A stretch of 64,000 nucleotides of DNA from a virus (IMGVR_UViG_3300034073_004910:1-64000), one strand, 5' to 3'. Positions 9,518 through 61,912 are shown, counted from the first letter of the stretch. Notes: a model not told the origin generated them from the letters alone. Numbers and translations are program-made.

Positions 9518-10183
9518 TTATTTAATCCACCTGCCTGGCTCAAAATAGTTAAACCATACGCTAACATCAGGCATTAAAACGACACTTTGTGTATTTTCAC
9601 GAATAGCAGTTAAAATGAACATGCCATCTCCAGCATGTTCTAATGGAAATTTATATTTTTTAGAGTTCAATAATTTTCCTGAAATTGTTATTTGCTCTAG
9701 CCCAATGGAGCCAATTTTCAGATTATCTACTGATGCTGTGAGTCTTGTTGGCGGGTGCCTTCTTCCCGCTTCCGCATCTGTTGGAATTGCATCCCCCCTA
9801 TCCATAGACGTTATTATAATGTCAAAGTCAATGCCTTTGTCTTTTTTGATATGGTTTAAATTAGTAGTTATTTTTTTAAAATAATCTGGCTCAACTGCAT
9901 CATCGTCGTTTAAAAAACAATACATTTCACCATTATTAATTTCCATCGTATCTAATAGCCAGTTCATCGCAGCATTACATCTTTCCCAGAAATACATATG
10001 TTTGTTATTTTTCATAATATAATGATGAATCCAGTTTTTTTCGTACTTCTTGAATTCGTCATTATGTGGGAAGGTGTCATCAGTTACCACATGCCAGTTT
10101 ACATTTTTTGGTTCAAGAATACTGATCATCTTTTCAATATTCTCGACTCTATTTAATGGAGTTATCACGTTATAAATCATCAT
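9518..10183 (-). CDS. Putative GT-A (family 2-like) glycosyltransferase
   Basis: YNVITP..R, CFLNDDD, AGDGMF; lies in the sugar island. Confidence 0.6.
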   Translation of the reverse strand: MMIYNVITPLNRVENIEKMISILEPKNVNWHVVTDDTFPHNDEFKKYEKNWIHHYIMKNNKHMYFWERCNAAMNWLLDTMEINNGEMYCFLNDDDAVEPDYFKKITTNLNHIKKDKGIDFDIIITSMDRGDAIPTDAEAGRRHPPTRLTASVDNLKIGSIGLEQITISGKLLNSKKYKFPLEHAGDGMFILTAIRENTQSVVLMPDVSVWFNYFEPGRWIK

Positions 10184-36476: not shown

Positions 36477-36689
36477 ACTTTTCTCCTAATTGAATTCCTA
36501 GAATTCAATCTGCTCTTAAAAGAGCTAAGGAACGCAGCTAGAGAATTCTAGCCACATTATCGAACCCATCCTCTTCCTCGTCTTTATCCCACCAGTCCGA
36601 ACTTTCTCGAGTGGAATAAATATCGTTAACACCAGCAAACAAAAGTATAATAACTAAAAATAAATTCACTATTGTTTTCCTAATTAGTG

Positions 36690-37030
36690 GGAGTTTTTCT
36701 GTTGCGAGGAGGTTCCTTTGGGGAACACAAAACTCCCGAAACCCCGAGAAATCATGCTGCTACAGCATATTCCTCATTATAAAAGTCATCGTTTGCTTTT
36801 ATATTTATTTGCTTCTTCGACCGGGAAGTCCCAATCCTAACGGCTTTCGCATTGCCGGATCGTCCGCGTCTTTTTCCTGCTCTGTCGAAACCAGAACACC
36901 CCCATCAAAGTATACTCTGTCGCCGTTTTTGCTACGCTGGTAACGACCAAGACCTCAAAGAATATACTTTGGTGGAGGTGGGCGGAGTCGAACCGCCTTC
37001 CAAAACAGTTCCAATCAACATCATACGATC
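36690..37030 (-). ncRNA. ssrA: Circularly permuted (two-piece) tmRNA; acceptor piece ends in CCA at 36970, coding piece begins at 36903, tag at 36796-36752
   Basis: GGCGGTTCGACTCCGCCCACCTCCACCA precedes GGGGGTGTTCTGGTTTCGAC; G3-U70 Ala identity; tag ANDDFYNEEYAVAA*. Outer ends are approximate. Confidence 0.9.
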
Positions 37031-37155
37031 ATAATTGCTCAGTTTGGATTCGAACCTTGTCCGTGTATTGTCTACCCGCACGTCCCACCGTACTGACCGA
37101 GCAAATTTATTTATTTACTTTACAGTGAGTATTATAGTAAATCTTGAGCTAAAGG

Positions 37156-50354: not shown

Positions 50355-50580
50355 AAACTCAACTCCAATTGATAGGGTTCAGACAGCCGCACGTCGCAGT
50401 TTTTAATCATGGTTGAAAAAATACTGTCGTAGTTGTGAACTTCAACGGCCAGCTCGATGTTGTAGTGATCTATAATTTCTACAAGAGCTGCGATTTTAGT
50501 TTCACTTTCCGCTAATCGAGCCAGATAAGATTCTCTCGAAGTATTAGTGATAGGAAATTGTACGATCATATTTACTCCAA

Positions 50581-50868
50581 TAAAAAACCCCGCAGAAGTT
50601 TCCCTCTGCGGGGTTGTATTCTGAGTAGCTCCCCGCTGCTCTCAGATTGAAAGTTTTACACTTTCTCCCGTACCTACGCTATTCATTCCAGAGTAGCGTC
50701 GCTATTTTATAGTAGCTTAGTAATTCGCTACTTGCAGCAATTCGGTCCTGAAAGGACCAAACCCCGCTGGGGTTTTAAATAGAGCTTAAATCTAACAATT
50801 TAAGATATTTTGCGCTGAAAGCGCACAACCCCGCTGAAGTTTGTGTTAACATGTAACTCAACTTCAGA
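50581..50868 (-). ncRNA. Candidate ~290-nt structured ncRNA with repeated CAGCGGGG motifs
   Basis: TTGACA-17-TATAAT promoter (50903-50875), several hairpins, strong terminator (50581-50615), no ORF. Confidence 0.55.
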
Positions 50869-51680
50869 AAATACATTATAGAGCACTTGAGCTAGAATGT
50901 CAACAACTATTTTTCAATTGCTGCTAACTTCTGGGCTACTTGAACCGCCTCAATGTAAAGTGGATGCCCACGATGTTTAATCGCTTCGTTTCTTAGAAAC
51001 CAGCGAGCATTGAGAGGAGTACCCTCTTGGCGGTTCTCAGGAACACCTAGCTTTTTCATTATGCTTGCAAAAGTCATGTTTCTGATCTCCGCTGTCGAAG
51101 ATCCTCAAGAGCTACGCGAAACATTTCTTTTTCCAGCGTCATGAGCGTGCTTTCGTAAATTACGGCTACGTCAGCTAACGCAGAAAAAAGTTCTGCATCA
51201 GTAAACTCGCCTTGAATTCCACAGTGCTCTTTCATCTCAGAAACTTCCAAAAGAGAGGCAACAACGCAGCCGTTACGATCTTCCCAAGATTGAAGTTCCC
51301 GCCATTTTTGTTTTGCTTTAATATTCATGCCTTAGGACTCCGCACCAAATAATAGGTATTGTTTTCGATGTAACAGCCGTAGTCGTGTTTTACACGAAGA
51401 TAGAAAATTGCATTTTCTGTTCGTCCATGTACGAAAGCTACTGGACCTTTCCAGCATTCTTCAAAGAAGTCATTGCTTTCGCGTACAAAATGACAAATTC
51501 GTAGTTGAAGTAGAGCTGCTGCTCTGCTTTTCCACTCGTACATTGTTGCACTCCTTGAAATACAAAAGTCGCCCCTCTCCCGCGCTTTTGTTGACTTTCC
51601 ACACTTGTTGAAAGTCTTACCGCACTTCTATGCGAGATCAGCGTTGCGCTGCTCGTAAGAAGAGGAAGCTTTGCACTTCC

Positions 51681-53869: not shown

Positions 53870-54500
53870 CGGGGGCCGGAAAAAATTGGGGTAATTTGTG
53901 CGGGGTCGGTGCAAGCCGAGTCGGGGTTTGTGCAAATTACTGCAAATTAGTGCACCCGCCCGGGCGGTTGTAAAAAGACTAGCAAAAGCAACTCGGTGGA
54001 GCAAATAAAAAATTTGACTTGACAAATAGGGGGTGCGAAAAGTATAATGGGCGCGCGCAAGTGCAGCGCAATTTGCATTGCTTTTGCACTTGGGCGCGGA
54101 AAATATTGCATTGATTTTGCACTTGCTGGTCGGCGCGCGGGTTCAAGCGGGGTTGGAAAGCAAAACGGGGTTGCTGCAAATTTATTGATAATTAGTGCAA
54201 ATTGGTGCACCCGCCCGGGCACTCGTAAATTTAGTACTTGACATCGCTTTCGCACTTGGGCGCAGGCTCGCTGCAAATTTTTTTCTTCAAAAAAATTTTT
54301 TTAAGTGCAAAAAACTTGACTAAAGTACAAAAATGCAGCAAATTCAGCAGCATACGTAGATTTAGTACTTGCATCGCTTTTGCACTTGGGCGCAGGAGGC
54401 GCCGGGGGTTGAATGGGCAGGTAGCTTGCCGCCGGGGGGTTGAATGGGCAGGTGGGTTGACGAAATCGGGGGCAATGGCAGGTAGCTTGCGCAAACCCCG
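53870..54500. repeat. ORF-poor region of short direct and inverted repeats (putative injection-stop / terminal-repeat boundary)
   Basis: GTGCACCCGCCCGGGC x2, TT(T/C)GCACTTGGGCGC x3, GGGGGTTGAATGGGCAGG x2, many TTGCA/TGCAA; sits where gene density and GC change. Confidence 0.55.
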
Positions 54501-54632
54501 CCCGATGAGCAAGAAACTTGACGAACGCCCCCAGGCGGCAAATGCGAATGAGAATCATTCGCATTTCCGGCGCAATGTTATAACATACCATTGAGCGAGT
54601 AAATGAAGGGGCGCTCGTCGCGCCCCAGTCAT

Positions 54633-54953
54633 CTATCGAGCGATCGCTTCGAGCAACCGTTCGAGTGACACCTTACTTGCCTTTTCCAGCCCATCCAGAC
54701 TGTTAGCGGCCAGACTCAATGCCTGCTCAATTCGGTCTACCGTGACTTCCTTGGAAGCAACCGGCTTTCCATCCTTACGAACCCGTTCGAGTTTTTGGTA
54801 GGGAATTCCTTCCCGAATCGCTTTTGCGATGATGCTTTTGACTTTCGCATCAAACTGCTCTGCCAGCCCTTCTACCTTTTCAAGGTTGAGCGGGGCCGCA
54901 TCGCGCATCGCGGTCAGAAGGGTCGGGTTAAACGTGCTAGCTTTCTCTGCCAT
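54633..54953 (-). CDS. T5 A2-like protein, copy 1
   Basis: LAEQF..KVKSIIAKAIREGIPYQK..RKDG..LDGLEKASK; near-identical to 59067-59387. Confidence 0.6.
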   Translation of the reverse strand: MAEKASTFNPTLLTAMRDAAPLNLEKVEGLAEQFDAKVKSIIAKAIREGIPYQKLERVRKDGKPVASKEVTVDRIEQALSLAANSLDGLEKASKVSLERLLEAIAR

Positions 54954-55324
54954 TTTGGCTTCCTCTTTTGGCTCGCTGGCCTATCCAGCGAATGAGAGAA
55001 TTATACGCCCATCGAGCCGAAAAGGAAAGAACTCTTTTTCATATCGCTGGCCGTTTTCATGCGAAAAAATTCCTTGACAAGCGCAGCGCGCTTGTGATAA
55101 AATCGGCGCGGCTATTGTCAAGTAAGTTGACAATTCGCCCCCAGGCGCCAAATGCGAATGAGAATCAATCGCATTTGGCAAGCAAAAAATAAGGCGTTAT
55201 AACGCCTTATTTTAAATATGCATCCTCGTATGTATCAAATATAAACGCGCATTCTAGCAGAAGATTTATTATTAGCGGGTTTAGGCAAATTAGCCTAAAC
55301 CCTTCTACCAGTTCCATCATATTA

Positions 55325-55996
55325 TTATGCCGCCTTTTGAACAATACGCCACGGATTAGGCGTTATTACATTGTAGGGAACCTTGCGCTTATGCTTGAAA
55401 CATTCTGCAAGAATTTCCGTTTCGATAATAGCGTCCGACAATGCAGTATGATCCTCGATAAAGTCATGATTACCGGAAATAAAACGATAGGCAAACTCTG
55501 CACCAGTCTTAATATTACCCTTAGCAGAAACCCAACCGCTATTCTGAGCGAGTTTAATGTAAGACTTTTTGTTGAGTCTTACTTCGCAAGCAAAACGCCA
55601 GATATCGAGTTCACGAATATCGGACGAAAACAGCGGAGCGGTATTATATTGTTCGCCCATGTTACGCAATACACGTTCATCGAATCCCAGATTATAAGCG
55701 GCTACAGTATCAATCTTATAATCAATCGCAAGATTGCGAATAGTATTAGATACCGTTTCCCATGATTCCATCTTAACAGTACCGTCGTTCAGCATGGGGG
55801 CGTAGTGCGTGAACATCTTGCGAGCGTAGAATGCGCCCATCATTCGTTCCGCATTCGTGAATACTTCGCGCACCAGTGCATTGTACTGGTGAACAATGTT
55901 ACCCTGACGATCAGTAATCGTAAGGCCAACGTCGTAAACGTGACCGTTCAGGTCGCACGTTTCGGTATCGAGAACCATAATCATTTGCTTTGCCAT
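55325..55996 (-). CDS. DEDDh 3'-5' exonuclease
   Basis: VLDTET, AYNLGFD, EDHTALSDA. Confidence 0.8.
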   Translation of the reverse strand: MAKQMIMVLDTETCDLNGHVYDVGLTITDRQGNIVHQYNALVREVFTNAERMMGAFYARKMFTHYAPMLNDGTVKMESWETVSNTIRNLAIDYKIDTVAAYNLGFDERVLRNMGEQYNTAPLFSSDIRELDIWRFACEVRLNKKSYIKLAQNSGWVSAKGNIKTGAEFAYRFISGNHDFIEDHTALSDAIIETEILAECFKHKRKVPYNVITPNPWRIVQKAA

Positions 55997-56052
55997 CTTC
56001 GCGAACCCTTGCTGTGAGTGAGAACCTACTATACTCAACGCCGAACCGGCTG

Positions 56053-56478
56053 TCAACGGTTTTCGTATCGAAAGACAAAAAATTCCTGCATCGCTCGGGC
56101 TTCCATTTCCCAAGGGGCGAGCCAATAGTCTAAATCCGTTTCGTTGGAATAAACCTTGCCTTTATATAAAACCTTATCGTTTGCAATATCTTGCAATTCT
56201 CCTTTTACCCATTGTTTAATATGCGTCATTTCATGCGCTACTAATTCCATTAGTCGCTGTTCTGACAACATAAGTTCTTCATTAATAATAATAAAGAACA
56301 AATCGTCATCGCCCCTAAAACATGCAGCATCCGCAGCACCAGAAACAAAATTTTCTATGCAGTCTGCCGATATATCAACGCCAATGTTTTTTGGCAGCTT
56401 ATAAAAGCTTACGCAATCTTTTGCGATAGCTTTCGCAATAGTATTAAAGCGCTTAAAGCCCAAATCAACCTCGATCAT
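56053..56478 (-). CDS. Zn metallopeptidase-like protein
   Basis: LVAHEMTHIKQ (HExxH), PWEMEA. Confidence 0.7.
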   Translation of the reverse strand: MIEVDLGFKRFNTIAKAIAKDCVSFYKLPKNIGVDISADCIENFVSGAADAACFRGDDDLFFIIINEELMLSEQRLMELVAHEMTHIKQWVKGELQDIANDKVLYKGKVYSNETDLDYWLAPWEMEARAMQEFFVFRYENR

Positions 56479-56606
56479 TTTCGCGTTCCTTCACAACCAA
56501 CACAGATATTATAGTCTAACGGGGGCCAAAAGTAAACATGAGAATTTCGTTTAGAATCAATGACTTAGATCAACCCGACCTTCGAGTTTTTCAATTTCAG
56601 TCATAC

Positions 56607-56792
56607 TTACCACACCAAGCGACGTACTTCCGAATCTAGCATCCATTCTTCAATGTAAACTGTTTCTACCATTTTACATTCATTATCGAGTTCAAGAGCC
56701 CGACATTTCGCTTTTTCGAGGTCAGAATATACTGCTACCGTAACGCGACCGTTCTGCGTACTTTCAAGAACAATACCATACACTACATTCAT
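56607..56792 (-). CDS. Small pre-early protein, paralog family 1/3
   Basis: VY....VYSD..KA..A.EL...VYIEEW..DS. Confidence 0.6.
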   Translation of the reverse strand: MNVVYGIVLESTQNGRVTVAVYSDLEKAKCRALELDNECKMVETVYIEEWMLDSEVRRLVW

Positions 56793-56991
56793 TTTCGCGT
56801 TCCTTCATTCGATGACAAGCATTCTAGCGGGTTTCATGCAGCCAGACTAGTGAAAGATTTTCATGGTGCCATGAGAAAAATTCGCTTGACAAGTATGGGA
56901 TGGGGATGGTATAATTTCGGCGCCATATTGACAAGTAGCTTGTCAATCGCCGAGGCGCCAAATGCGAATGATTCGCATTCGCATTTGCCCG

Positions 56992-57246
56992 TTATTGGTA
57001 AACAATCAACGCCAAAAGCGATGATTGTAAAAAGAACCCTATTCCGTTTGACGTTATATGCAAAAAGTCACGGTTGCCTATTGCGCGAATAAAATAAAGC
57101 GCCAGCCCAGCCCACACCATTAAGACTAATGAAATTTCAGGCAATTTAACATCCTGCCCGTTCAGTATTCCTATCGTAGTGGGAACCGTCGCGCCTTGAA
57201 TAAATAGCATACCGAGCCATCCGCAAAATTCGCAAAGGTTTTTCAT
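56992..57246 (-). CDS. Three-TM membrane protein (SemiSWEET/PQ-loop-like size)
   Basis: GWLGML..ATVPT; three hydrophobic helices. Confidence 0.45.
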   Translation of the reverse strand: MKNLCEFCGWLGMLFIQGATVPTTIGILNGQDVKLPEISLVLMVWAGLALYFIRAIGNRDFLHITSNGIGFFLQSSLLALIVYQ

Positions 57247-57727
57247 TCCTTCACCTTGACTTCAGTAATGCTGCAAGTCAGAAAATGATCTGGAGTCGCT
57301 CCCCAGATATACCCGTTTTCAGAATGCCAAGTTATTGGGTCACCATCTAACATTTTGTGTATCGCTTTTTGCGCGGCCTTCACGCTAACGTAAAGCCCTG
57401 CAATTGCACCGATTTCTTGGATATATACAACCGGATCTATGGTTAGCTTGTAAACGATCATTTTGCGTTCCTTCAGTTGAGAGAAGTATTCTAGCCCAGC
57501 GCGCGCTCGGTGTCAATCATTTTCTTCGGGCTTTTTCCAGTAGACTGCCAAGCGCTTGCAATTGAAGCGAATCGTGATTGATTCGTGCCCGTCGCGAATC
57601 GAAGTGTATCGCTTATAATTGGGACCAATGCTATCAACTTGAAAATCCCTGCCATTTTCCCAGTCTGCCAGCGCCTTAGCGGCTGAAGTGTAATCGCGAC
57701 CATACCCCGGAATTACTGTCATTTTAT

Positions 57728-57922
57728 TTATTCCCTCGACCAAACTGTAACAGAAAATTCGCTATCCATCATCCATTCTTCAATATAAACGCTTTCTCCC
57801 ATTTCGCATTGGCTCAATAATTCTTCAGCGAGTTTCACCGCCTTATTATAATCGGAATAAACTCCGACCGTAGCATAGCTGTTGTCCGAAGGCTCGCCAA
57901 ATACAACAGTGTATACATTCAT
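57728..57922 (-). CDS. Small pre-early protein, paralog family 2/3
   Basis: MNVYTV..VGVYSD..KA..AEEL..VYIEEWMMDS. Confidence 0.6.
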   Translation of the reverse strand: MNVYTVVFGEPSDNSYATVGVYSDYNKAVKLAEELLSQCEMGESVYIEEWMMDSEFSVTVWSRE

Positions 57923-58250
57923 TTTTACATCCCTCTATTCGATGACAAGCATTCTAGCGGGGTTCGTGCGAATAGACTAGTGAAATATTTTCATGATGCC
58001 ATGAGAAAAATTCGCTTGACAAGTAATGGATAGGGGTGATATAATTTTGGCGCCATATTGACAAGTAGCTTGACAATTCGCCCCGAGGCGGCAAATGCGA
58101 ATGATTCTCATTTGCATCGCTGCTCTTGTACCTCGCGCCTAACCAAATGCTTGACAATTGCGCGCTTAACATGCTTACCATGTTTAGCGGAATGCGTTCC
58201 TGCTCGCCCTGCTAAATGCGCGTTTTTAGCTACAAAATTTTGCGCTTTCA

Positions 58251-58697
58251 TTATACGTCCCTCGGGTGTATTGCGTTAATTCCCAGTATTTTAACAGTGT
58301 TTCTTACAGAATCATTATCTTCATAAAATACATTAGAAACGCGGTGAAAGTCTACATTTAATCCTGACAGTAAGTCATATTTTAGAAGTGCATCGGGCCG
58401 ATTATCGTTCTCACCTTCGCGGGACAATACGCGATCAAAGTGTAACCCATGAGTACGCAAAAAGGTAAAGTCTGCCATCTGCAATACTCGCGCAGTACAA
58501 ATTACGACAATATTACCAGCATTCCAAACGTCACGCCAAACGTTAGCGAGCGGTAAAAGTTTATCTTGCATAATCTTTTCGGGCGTAGAATTTGCTCGCC
58601 ATCCGGCAAGGCAAAAGCTACCGTCCGCATTCGCAACAGAACGATGGCTTGAATCTATGACCGTTCCATCTAAATCGAAAATGTTATATCTTGGCAT
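58251..58697 (-). CDS. HAD-family phosphatase (PNKP phosphatase-like)
   Basis: IFDLDGTV, ICTAR, RPD..LK, FYEDN. Confidence 0.8.
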   Translation of the reverse strand: MPRYNIFDLDGTVIDSSHRSVANADGSFCLAGWRANSTPEKIMQDKLLPLANVWRDVWNAGNIVVICTARVLQMADFTFLRTHGLHFDRVLSREGENDNRPDALLKYDLLSGLNVDFHRVSNVFYEDNDSVRNTVKILGINAIHPRDV

Positions 58698-59066
58698 TTT
58701 CTTAAACCCCGTAAACGTGTGCGCTGGCAACAATGATTGCAAAAAGAACGACTCTGCTAAGAGCGGAAGTGAGTACTAATTCTGCGAGCTTTTTCATTCG
58801 TTCCGTTTCCTGATTCAATGGGAGTATTCTACCGGGTCCGAGCAAAAAGTACAAGAACTCTTTTTCATATCGCTGGCCGTTTTCATGCGAAAAAATTCCT
58901 TGACAAAACCCATGCGGTTATCGTAAAATCGGCGCGGCTATTGACAAGTAGCTTGTCAATTCGCCGAGGCGGCAAATGCGAATGATTCTCATTTGCATTT
59001 GCCGAGCAACGTTATAACATACCATTGAGCGGGTAAATGAAGGGGCGCTCATCGCGCCCCGATCAT

Positions 59067-59387
59067 CTATCGAGCAATCGCTTCCAGCAACCGCTCGAGT
59101 GACACCTTACTTGCCTTTTCCAGCCCATCCAGACTGTTAGTGGCCAGATTCAATGCTTGCTCAATTCGGTCTACCGTGACTTCCTTGGAAGCAACTGGCT
59201 TTCCATCCTTGCGAACCCGTTCGAGTTTCTGGTAGGGAATTCCTTCCCGAATCGCTTTTGCGATGATGCTCTTGACTTTCGCATCAAACTGCTCTGCAAG
59301 GCTCTCTACCTTTTCAAGGTTCAGAGGCGCTGCATCGCGCATCGCGGTCAGAAGGGTCGGGTTAAACGTGCTAGCTTTCTCTGCCAT
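59067..59387 (-). CDS. T5 A2-like protein, copy 2
   Basis: 3 aa differences from 54633-54953. Confidence 0.6.
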   Translation of the reverse strand: MAEKASTFNPTLLTAMRDAAPLNLEKVESLAEQFDAKVKSIIAKAIREGIPYQKLERVRKDGKPVASKEVTVDRIEQALNLATNSLDGLEKASKVSLERLLEAIAR

Positions 59388-59596
59388 TTTGGCTTTCTCC
59401 TTTGGCTCGCTGGCCTATCCAGCGAATGAGAGTATTCTACAGGGCCTGAGCAAAAAGTACAAGACCTTTTTTTCATATCGCTGGCCGTTTTCATGCAAAA
59501 AAATTCCTTGACAAGCGCAGCGCGCTTATGATAAAATCGGCGCGCCCATTGTCAAGTAGCTTGACAATTCGCGCCGAGGCTACAAATGCGAAGATT

Positions 59597-59965
59597 TTTC
59601 ACTTGCAAACCAGGCCCAGGCCTGGCATTGAAATTTCACTTGCAAATTCGCCCCAGGCCTGGCATTGAAATTTCACTTGCAAACCAAACCCAGGCCTGGC
59701 ATTGAAATTTCACTTGCAAATTCGCCCCAGGCCTGGCATTGAAATTTCACTTGCAAATTCGCCCCGGGCCTGGCATTGAAATTTCACTTGCATAGGTTTC
59801 TAACTTGCATAGATTTCTAACTTGCATAGATTTCTAACTTGCATGTGCAGGTTTCTTGCCTTTCCCCTCGATGGGCAGGTAGCTTGCAGGTGAGCCCGCC
59901 GATGGGCAGGTAGCTTGCAGGTGAGCCCGCCGATGGGCAGGTAGCTTGCAGGTGAGCCCGCCGAT
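59597..59965. repeat. Stacked tandem repeats: 5x37 bp (59597-59781), 3x17 bp, 3x31 bp
   Basis: TTTCACTTGCAAANNNNNCCCAGGCCTGGCATTGAAA; CTTGCATAGATTTCTAA; CGATGGGCAGGTAGCTTGCAGGTGAGCCCGC. Confidence 0.9.
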
Positions 59966-60208
59966 GCGCAAGAGACTTGCCTTTGCCCGCCCGATGGGCA
60001 GGCAAGTTGACGAATTCCATGAGATGCGCAGAAAACTTGCATTTTCGGCGCGGTTGGCACGTTTCTTGCACATGAGTCAAAGCTGGCATGAATTTTGCAT
60101 GTACTCCACAATTGGCATGATTCTTGCAGATTCGGCGCGGTCCGCAAGATGCTTGCACAATTCCGACAAATGCGAGTAATTCGCATTTGTCGGAATTATA
60201 AGCGATTA

Positions 60209-60553
60209 TTAAGTAGTCGCTTTATGTTCTTCTAGCATACGCGCGAACAATGCGCGCTTATTATTAATAATCGCTTCGGCTTTTATTAGAATATCGAGTT
60301 CTTCTGCCGTTAACTCAATCGGATCAAGTTTCGGCAATCCTTCTGTAGCGTTCTTTTTATTATTGCAGTCATGGCAAAGGCATTGTAACCATTCAGGATC
60401 ATTTAAATCGATACCCATTGCAAGCAACGTTTTGCGTGGATAAACATGATCAATTTCAAGATTAGAACCACTACCGCAAGCTGCGCAGCGATAGTTATAT
60501 GCTGCAAATACTTGCGCGCGCAGTCTCATTTCAACCTTGCTAAACTTTGCCAT
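60209..60553 (-). CDS. HNH endonuclease
   Basis: CAACG...LEIDHVYP..LQCLCHDCNNKK. Confidence 0.85.
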   Translation of the reverse strand: MAKFSKVEMRLRAQVFAAYNYRCAACGSGSNLEIDHVYPRKTLLAMGIDLNDPEWLQCLCHDCNNKKNATEGLPKLDPIELTAEELDILIKAEAIINNKRALFARMLEEHKATT

Positions 60554-60923
60554 CTCGTCTCTCCAGTACCGTTGCTCTATGGTTCCCATTATACAGGCAT
60601 CCTCGAGCATGGCAATAGGCGAGTTAGACCTTTTTTTCATATCGCTGAGCTTTCTTATGCGAAAAAAATCCTTGACACGCTCTGGCGTGGTAAGGTAAAA
60701 TCGGCGCGCCCATTGTGAAGTAGACTGACAATCATTCAGCGGCCTACATGAAAAAAATTCGCTTGACAAGTATAGGATAGGTGAGGTATAATTTTGGCGC
60801 CATATTGGCAAGTAGACTGACAATCATTCACCGGCCTACATAAAAAAATTCGCTTGACACGCTCTGGCGTGGTAGGGTATAATCGGCGCGCCCAAATGAG
60901 AGGTATTCTCATTTGGGTTACCG

Positions 60924-61112: not shown

Positions 61113-61200
61113 TTTCGCGTTCCTCTGTTTCCTGATTCAATGAGAGTATTCTACACGGTCTGCCGAGAGAGTACAAGACTTTTTTGTAACAGAATGTAAC

Positions 61201-61393
61201 GTGCGTCGACTTGTTACCGTGCGTCGACTTGTTACCGTGCGTCGACTTGTTACCAGCCCGGGGCGGTTCCGAGACTGTCAAGTAGCTTGACGCTCAGGCT
61301 ACCCCGCACGTACAACTTTTGGAATTTTTCAAAAATTGAAAATTAAAGCAATCTGCCCAAGCAATTTGCCCAAGTAATTTGCCCAAGCAATTT
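61201..61393. repeat. Short tandem repeats at the putative genome terminus (3x18 bp at 61201-61254; ~4x13 bp at 61346-61393)
   Basis: GTGCGTCGACTTGTTACC x3; AAGCAATTTGCCC-like x~4. Confidence 0.8.
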
Positions 61394-61465
61394 ACTCTTC
61401 AAAAATTTTTACCATCAAAAAAATAATGTTTGACATTTCGTTTCGTAGCAACTATAATAGTCGTC

Positions 61466-61912
61466 ATGAATTTGGTAAAAATTTCTCCTGAAAGTCTTGA
61501 AATTGCAAATGCATATTTGCAAAATGGCAGCATTGCTAGTGTTGCAAAGGCGCTCGCACTTCCAGAAAATGAGGTGACAGAAATTCTCTCTCGCCGAGAA
61601 GTAAAAGCGTATCTAGATTCCATTTATCTAGATCACGGCTATCGAAATAGATTCAAGTTAGCAGAGACTCTCGATCTTCTCATAGACGAAAAACTTCGTG
61701 AAGCAGAAAGTACCGAGATGTACACTAACAAGGACTTAGCCGATCTGTTACACCTAGCTCATAAGATGCGTATGGATGAAATTAAAGCAATGACCGAACT
61801 TGAGAAAGCTCGAGCAACGCCGATTAAAAATCAAACCAACGTTCAGATTAATGAGACTCCATTTGGTGCTGGCAACTACGGCAAGTTAATGGAAAAACTT
61901 TTGCAATCATGA
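61466..61912 (+). CDS. Terminase small subunit (T5-like)
   Basis: ISPE..IANAYLQ..EVK.YLD..GYRNR..AHKMRMDE..NQTNVQ..NY; preceded by TTGACA-17-TATAAT at 61430. Confidence 0.85.
   Translation: MNLVKISPESLEIANAYLQNGSIASVAKALALPENEVTEILSRREVKAYLDSIYLDHGYRNRFKLAETLDLLIDEKLREAESTEMYTNKDLADLLHLAHKMRMDEIKAMTELEKARATPIKNQTNVQINETPFGAGNYGKLMEKLLQS

Follow-up and report, generated by a model that had tools for sequence, protein, structure and literature searches.

In T4-type phages, gene cassettes are shuffled at a motif known as the promoter-early stem-loop (PeSL) (PMC2839356, PMC4122927); its stem-loop ends the upstream gene, and the promoter that comes with it drives the gene that follows, in the same direction. 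In phage T5, the major nicks follow the consensus R/GCGCRGG (PMC3517423), which is given as NPu/GCGCN in the T5 annotation, and the major nick and injection-stop (iss) region has been described (bioRxiv 10.1101/866236); a review of the injection-stop region discusses DnaA boxes. Here we describe a repeated intergenic module that recalls both systems. It is found in the first 64 kb (IMGVR_UViG_3300034073_004910:1-64000, hereafter the window) of a 94.4-kb, 41% GC, single-contig IMG/VR record of an uncultured virus, and each of its nine copies contains a predicted sigma-70 promoter that points against the neighbouring genes (a backward promoter). By the standards of sequence comparison, these sites are consensus promoters kept by selection, with no open reading frame (ORF) behind them, in a module that is repeated, conserved across a clade of phages and partly homologous to T5.

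Nine backward promoters in a composite module

The pattern TTGACA-N15-20-TAWAAT has 15 matches in the window, against 0.29 expected. Nine of these have an 18-bp spacer (N18) and lie on the plus strand (Table 1), as the initial annotation of this DNA had reported, and the other six have a 17-bp spacer (N17); the whole record holds nine N18 and seven N17 matches. Every N18 copy agrees with the sigma-70 hexamers at 11–12 of 12 positions. When the nine are aligned, the A-run, CTTGACA, TAnAAT and the GCG of GGCGC are all invariant, which bears out the A-tract and the GGCGC discriminator described initially; GGCGC lies at the predicted start (about -5 to +1), 1–3 nt past the -10, in each copy.

Between copies, the two hexamers are 100% and 91% identical, compared with 43% for the spacers and 42–69% for the flanks. 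Since the hexamers are far better kept than the surrounding sequence, promoter function looks selected, and selection appears to have kept each copy a promoter. The nine copies comprise only five spacer lineages and are not nine independent cases. No plausible plus-strand ORF follows any of them, so the promoters are ORF-less and opposed to the early cassettes, again as first noted. The spacers of P55074 and P59508 (55077-55097 and 59511-59531) each contain a palindrome with 8-bp arms that overlaps the -35, and those of P60672 and P60854 contain one with 5-bp arms; these palindromes may be operator sites within the promoters.

The nine sites are best described, from their sequences, as paralogous copies of one composite intergenic module of roughly 150–200 bp. 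Past the backward promoter, the order of elements is GGCGC, a first palindrome (hp1), a TCGCC-type linker and a second palindrome (pal2), located at the 3' end of the next cassette or overlapping it. hp1 consists of two TTGWCAA heptamers separated by five nucleotides (5 matches, 0.12 expected). pal2 is a palindrome of the AATGCGAATGA type, six copies of which form one repeat family (D7), with variants at two positions (Table 1). The initial annotation had placed a hairpin and then a Fur-like palindrome after most of the promoters. The hairpin is intact in five copies, but those at 60712 and 60804 are degenerate and do not fold; pal2 is present in most copies, but an intact hp1 together with pal2 is limited to five of the nine. 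The likeness of the pal2 core to a Fur box, counted by eye, extends to about 13 of the 19 positions of the Fur consensus in a phage whose host is perhaps alphaproteobacterial.

Six of the nine backward promoters stand back-to-back with a weaker minus-strand cassette promoter, the two -35 elements being about 45 bp apart. The predicted transcripts of four to five intact copies form two strong hairpins (folding z of -3 to -8). Only one of the nine copies is followed by a canonical intrinsic terminator: the P55074 RNA is predicted to be about 105 nt long. Neither hp1 nor pal2 has a U-tract, and the other backward transcripts are predicted to continue antisense into the neighbouring cassette. The suggestion that the copies encode discrete two-hairpin small RNAs (sRNAs) of 60–70 nt is not supported by this observation, and the idea that all nine are terminated sRNA genes was rejected on the same grounds. 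An Rfam search of 53.5–61.5 kb returned only a spurious miRNA match and no family for the module RNA. The asymmetry between G-U and A-C wobbles has few informative positions; by eye, two G-T pairs (plus sense) are seen, in the pal2 copies at 58093 and 58974.

Table 1. Predicted features of the module region, in window coordinates.
Feature	Position	Strand	Remarks
P54019	54019..54048	+	TTGACA-N18-TATAAT then GGGCGC; reads into repeat array 1
P55074	55074..55103	+	N18, TAAAAT, then CGGCGC
P56886	56886..56915	+	N18, TG-extended -10, then TTCGGCGC
P58016	58016..58045	+	N18, TG-extended -10
P58900	58900..58929	+	N18
P59508	59508..59537	+	N18; spacer shares 94% identity with that of P55074; reads into repeat array 2
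Three tandem backward promoters (60672, 60763, 60854)	60672..60883	+	All N18, 91-nt spacing
hp1	55114..55134		TTGWCAA-N5-TTGWCAA palindrome
hp1	56927..56947		Palindrome
hp1, single A/A mismatch	58057..58077		Palindrome
hp1	58940..58960		Palindrome
hp1	59548..59568		Palindrome
Two decayed hp1	60712..60824 (60712-60732, 60804-60824)		Folding lost (folding prediction)
pal2	54540..54566		AATGCGAATGA type; 3' end of the transcription unit of the A2-like gene
pal2	55150..55177		Copy used as query that matched terminal repeats of T5-like phages
pal2	56960..56987		Repeat family
pal2	58093..58117		Overlaps stop codon of a 47-aa gene
pal2	58974..59001		Repeat family
pal2-like palindrome	60163..60193		End of array 2, 3' end of HNH gene
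pal2-like palindrome	60891..60917		Directly 3' of P60854; same layout in relatives L023, L032 and L083
Cassette promoter TTGTAC-17-TAGAAT	58826..58854	-	Back-to-back with P58900
Equivalent cassette promoters	59434-59462, 61148-61176, 60588-60615, 57488-57516, 56508-56536	-	Partners of backward promoters
Bidirectional intrinsic terminator	55184..55213		Sole canonical stop for a backward transcript
Repeat array 1	54049..54525	+	Two units match the T5 major-nick consensus in TTTGCAC context (54259, 54389)
Repeat array 2	59597..60160	+	Units of 37, 17 and 31 nt; sigma-54-like GGCA-N6-TTGC motifs
106-aa protein, predicted distant homologue of T5 A2 DNA-binding protein	54633..54953	-	Profile-profile comparison
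Second copy of 106-aa A2-like protein	59067..59387	-	Repeat family D2

Conservation in relatives and collinearity with T5

Relatives were collected by searching IMG/VR with the terminase small subunit (TerS) and the 106-aa protein of Table 1, which yielded 86 loci. The same design recurs in two distant contigs, with 10 backward copies in L089 and 11 in L090, all of them intergenic, antisense to cassettes and aimed at the terminase gene. Each has a near-consensus promoter followed by 21–22 nt, the invariant TTTTGGCGC and a hairpin of 10–12 bp, and about half of the hairpins of this type are followed by a T-rich tail. Ten of 11 base pairs of the hairpin have changed on both sides; none of 500 shuffles reached the observed values, and slid registers failed. 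The closer relatives L085 and L087 retain the GGCGC sequence, and in them TTTTCGGCGC precedes a TTGWCAA-N5-TTGWCAA hairpin whose ninth pair shows compensatory changes. A TAWAAT-C-GGCGC promoter is found on the same strand as TerS in about 20 further contigs; in some, a pal2-like palindrome or paired DnaA boxes come after it, and then a second promoter approximately 90 nt on, a spacing that matches the three tandem copies of the window. The hairpin sequence itself is wholly different among lineages (TTGWCAA here, GGGGTGT elsewhere). These comparisons indicate that the repeated boundary module is conserved across a phage clade.

Searches with sequence from the module were otherwise uninformative: the exact hp1 pattern had three unrelated matches across IMG/VR (about the chance number), and neither a megablast search with the module region nor a search with a relative's module gave any match among cultured phages. 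No paper describing this design was found in the searchable literature. In four of the relatives, a GGCGC-type backward promoter is directly followed by paired DnaA boxes 2–3 bases apart (L022 at about 6560, L028 at about 7050, L037 at about 5190 and L078 at about 1215), which recalls the pairing of DnaA boxes in the injection-stop region of T5.

The relatives also bear on the spacer, whose fixed length of 18 bp had been presented initially as a hallmark of these promoters. Within this genome, N18 is found in 9/9 backward promoters and 0/7 other consensus promoters, with paralogy reducing the nine to five lineages. Among relatives, promoters of the same class are mostly N17 (24, with 7 N18 and 2 N16), and other consensus promoters are N17 in 214 cases, N18 in 11 and N16 in 12, such that N18 is enriched in the class (21% vs 5%, Fisher p = 0.003). 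The orthologues of P60854 in L023, L032 and L083 and of P54019 in L085 are all N17. As far as these sequences indicate, 18 bp is a mild tendency of the promoter class and not a conserved constraint. The invariance is restricted to this one genome, a result that the initial annotation had named as contrary to its proposal, and the view of the 18-bp spacer as a defining constraint is corrected here. The consensus sites other than the nine are indeed N17, but of those that had been counted as gene-driving, the one at 50903 drives no protein gene. This minus-strand site (50903-50875) matches the N17 promoter consensus perfectly, and the RNA behind it (window 50578-50903), approximately 290 nt long and ORF-less, has a folding z of -8.1, a clear intrinsic terminator near 50585 and no Rfam family; this RNA is a candidate phage non-coding RNA.

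A link to T5, which like the clade-wide conservation goes beyond the initial annotation, is provided by pal2. The query matched 77 phage records, nearly all of them T5-like (Demerecviridae) and infecting Klebsiella, Salmonella, Escherichia and Yersinia, and several of the matches lie inside annotated terminal repeats; T5 itself (L001) has a pal2 element at 9683-9716 in its left repeat. On the nicked strand of the T5 7.9% nick, an A-run/GCGC, a 7-bp hairpin, GCTCGCC and a AATGCGAATGA palindrome follow one another in the order of the module, and the module motif is on the strand corresponding to T5's nicked strand once the late and replication genes are aligned. On these alignments, the GGCGC-hairpin-pal2 half of the module is collinear with the T5 major-nick/injection-stop unit, and pal2 is detectably homologous to its T5 counterpart. 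Both also adjoin repeat arrays, on the inward flank of the DNA that enters early. They differ in that the T5 region has one unit per terminal repeat with no consensus promoter before it, whereas here the unit is fused to a perfect promoter and occurs nine-fold between cassettes, with nicks that are putative. Because the terminal repeat of T5 has no consensus backward promoters, the promoter half appears to be specific to this lineage, and T5 was rejected as a model for that half.

G/GCGC is present in all nine module copies, and the full seven-base R/GCGCRGG is confined, within the module region, to the array units at 54259 and 54389; genome-wide, it occurs four times on the plus and five times on the minus strand, with no strand bias. 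The two array units (within 54245-54265 and 54370-54395, plus strand) read TTTGCAC-N4-GCGCAGG, a context shared with the major nick of T5 at 7.9%, and are candidates for true nick sites or injection-stop equivalents. In the cultured T5-like phages Gostya9 (L095, 400-500) and Sugarland (L094, 395-500), the injection-stop arrays contain at least three palindromes that closely resemble the Fur-box core (AATGATAATCATT). The two repeat arrays of the window are, in addition, rich in motifs resembling sigma-54 promoters: GGCA-N6-TTGC occurs 11 times in the window (2.1 expected), and eight of these are in the arrays (54416-54490 and 59874-60127), all on the plus strand and three with a different intervening sequence. 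No such motif arrays were found in the relatives, and these motifs were therefore left out of the module.

Genome context and cassette exchange

The DNA polymerase and large terminase of this phage are 44% and 48% identical, respectively, to their counterparts in T5-like phages, which places it as a deep-branching relative of the T5 family. The record is approximately 91% complete according to CheckV. Replication and early genes read leftward over 1–46 kb, and terminase and structural genes read rightward from 61.4 kb. The module region lies between these two blocks, where a collapsed T5-type terminal repeat would be expected to sit, and it is probably the first-injected (terminal-repeat-like) part of the genome.

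The region contains short minus-strand cassettes encoding a DnaQ-like exonuclease, a PNKP-type HAD phosphatase, two DUF7336 proteins and an HNH endonuclease; their ORFs have conserved ribosome-binding sites, and some have family hits. The two copies of the 106-aa protein gene are 93% identical in DNA, and each has a repeat array beside it. This protein is probably a remote homologue of T5 A2 (hhalign probability 75%, E 2.6e-5, 79 columns), with support from profile-profile comparison only, as BLASTP gave no alignment with A2. No homologue of T5 A1 was found in the record.

Cassettes appear to have been exchanged at the module. Collinearity between the window and the relative L005 (TerS 99% identical) extends only rightward from approximately 61180; L005 has different genes to the left, and this break falls in the cassette-promoter part of a module. 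The A2-like cassette is duplicated between modules (D2). Both observations uphold the earlier proposal that the module is a recombination unit for cassette shuffling. In L085, the exonuclease, 141-aa and phosphatase genes form one block with fewer modules.

In these respects the module is much like a PeSL: a short composite of promoter and stem-loop recurs between the small accessory genes of a hyperplastic early region (families D3-D5, D7 and D11 at the boundaries of variable genes), and the motif is where indels or swaps between close relatives have their breakpoints, here in L005 and at the duplicated cassette. The two differ in arrangement, as the consensus promoter of the module is antisense to all flanking ORFs and its hairpin lies downstream of the promoter. 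The strongest promoter opposes the genes and would fire into the hairpins, and the module further has an invariant GGCGC and a T5-family palindrome and belongs to another phage family.

Between the last cassette and TerS (61195-61410), there are three 18-nt direct repeats, four 13-nt repeats of the AATTTGCCCAAGC type and, at about 61277-61293, an hp1 core without a promoter; this stretch could represent a packaging site or a terminal-repeat border. The TerS promoter (61430-61470) is a perfect N17 consensus with the likely ATG just 7 nt past the -10, as it is in relatives, and the mRNA implied by this is leaderless. A permuted (two-piece type) tmRNA was identified with ARAGORN at 36661-37062 on the minus strand; its tag, ANDDFYNEEYAVAA, is of alphaproteobacterial type and suggests an alphaproteobacterial host.

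Possible roles of the module

Our tentative preference, held with somewhat less than even confidence, is that the sites are functional backward promoters within a PeSL-like module at cassette boundaries, and that their non-coding structured transcripts act in cis. The module would have multiplied within the probable first-injected region of a deep-branching T5-like phage, a full copy consisting of a leftward cassette promoter of weak-to-moderate strength, the divergent sigma-70 promoter, GGCGC, hp1 and pal2. Host RNA polymerase would fire the backward promoters, and the resulting non-coding transcripts, with 5' ends folded into hp1 and pal2, would run head-on into the end of the neighbouring cassette. 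Each cassette would be a self-contained unit: the head-on promoter, when occupied, and the hairpins would jointly block read-through from upstream, and the weak divergent cassette promoter would be helped by the negative supercoiling that transcription makes on linear, nicked and unsupercoiled entering DNA. As the module repeats at every boundary, it would also serve as a homologous-recombination joint that shuffles cassettes as PeSLs do.

Several points weigh against this interpretation. The promoter activity, the RNA ends and the effect in cis are what we infer from sequence, using promoter rules borrowed from E. coli for a phage whose host may be alphaproteobacterial, to judge from the tmRNA. 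Three of the nine copies (54019, 60763 and 60854) lack a tightly paired cassette promoter, and some cassettes have intrinsic terminators of their own, which would make an insulator partly redundant. In hp1 and pal2, the sequence is conserved along with the pairing, so protein-binding DNA sites fit as well as RNA hairpins do. Finally, an insulator does not explain why GGCGC is invariant.

Alternatively, the module might work at the level of DNA, which we regard as unlikely. On this view, GGCGC would be a plus-strand interruption site of the T5 type, the hairpin and pal2 would bind a phage protein (e.g. the A2-like protein) or a host protein, and the promoter would dock RNA polymerase at the nick or open the DNA there. 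The G/GCGC in every copy, the full matches of two array units to the T5 nick consensus in their TTTGCAC context, the collinear order, the homology of pal2 to palindromes in T5-like terminal repeats and the placement on the equivalent strand all speak for this alternative. GGCGC also stays invariant in distant relatives although its distance from the -10 shifts, from 1–3 nt here to 21–22 nt there. The motif is short, however, and the full consensus shows no genome-wide strand bias. T5 nicks, moreover, need no promoter, and a nick site alone leaves the clear selection on perfect promoter hexamers unexplained.

A further, less probable suggestion is that the copies are genes for small structured RNAs acting in trans, made in bulk right after DNA entry as decoys or sponges for a host RNA-binding protein, nuclease or defence system. 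Very strong predicted promoters that yield ORF-less, highly structured transcripts would suit such a role, as would the clean, terminator-ended unit of P55074 and, in relatives, the invariant single-stranded A/U-rich TTTTGGCGC before a covarying hairpin with, in about half of the cases, a T-rich tail. The same unit is nevertheless the only one of the nine with a canonical terminator, two copies keep a perfect promoter despite a lost hairpin, and the hairpin sequence differs wholly between lineages and matches nothing in Rfam.

It is improbable, in our estimation, that the backward promoters feed the late genes, with the conserved motif and hairpin acting as a nut- or put-like leader that renders RNA polymerase resistant to termination; the polymerase would then cross the antisense cassettes, shut them by collision and enter the late block. 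Every copy does face terminase genes directly downstream in the three phages checked (3/3), and the tandem trio is just 550–750 nt upstream of TerS, but any promoter antisense to the cassettes will automatically face the late genes. The layout in relatives, with the linear conserved TTTTGGCGC and then a covarying hairpin just past a strong promoter, is that of a nut site, and most of the hairpins are not terminators; no N- or Q-like factor was identified, the strong bidirectional terminator stops the two leftmost copies, and TerS has a perfect promoter of its own.

Slightly more doubtful again is a gating of the promoters by nicks. The non-template strand of virion DNA would carry a T5-type nick at the GGCGC of the transcription start, and the combination of perfect hexamers, 18-bp spacer and GC-rich discriminator would open efficiently only on freshly injected, nicked and unsupercoiled DNA, or would dock RNA polymerase at each nick. 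If this were true, the array would itself time or pace the entry of the DNA in two steps and would fall silent after host ligase seals the nicks.

Among well-studied promoters, the stringent promoters of the rrn P1 type are similar in their near-consensus hexamers, non-optimal spacer and GC-rich (GCGC) discriminator, the rrn P1-P2 pair in that relatives have tandem promoters about 90 nt apart, and lambda pR' in being constitutively strong with no ORF behind it. The spacer of rrn P1 is 16 bp and not 18, however, and the module promoters face against the local genes. With consensus hexamers, a spacer of 18 bp and a discriminator rich in GC, RNA polymerase tends to bind tightly and to progress slowly or unstably, as a sink that sequesters sigma-70 holoenzyme during host shut-off would require, but this role, one of those put forward initially, is highly implausible: nine sites on a single entering DNA molecule could hardly titrate a cell's thousands of polymerases, the promoter type is kept in relatives with only one or two copies, and the fixed antisense orientation and boundary position would have no explanation.

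How T5-like phages organise and time expression from their first-entering DNA, and what purpose their nicks and injection-stop repeats serve, is poorly understood. The comparisons made here point to an uncultured branch of the T5 family that couples the nick-hairpin-palindrome unit to perfect host promoters always opposing the genes, and in which this unit would serve as a boundary and exchange joint for accessory-gene cassettes. Head-on insulation, divergent supercoiling coupling and nick-dependent promoter opening are the hypotheses that the arrangement raises, and a compact synthetic module of approximately 150 bp would be suitable for work on them in vitro.

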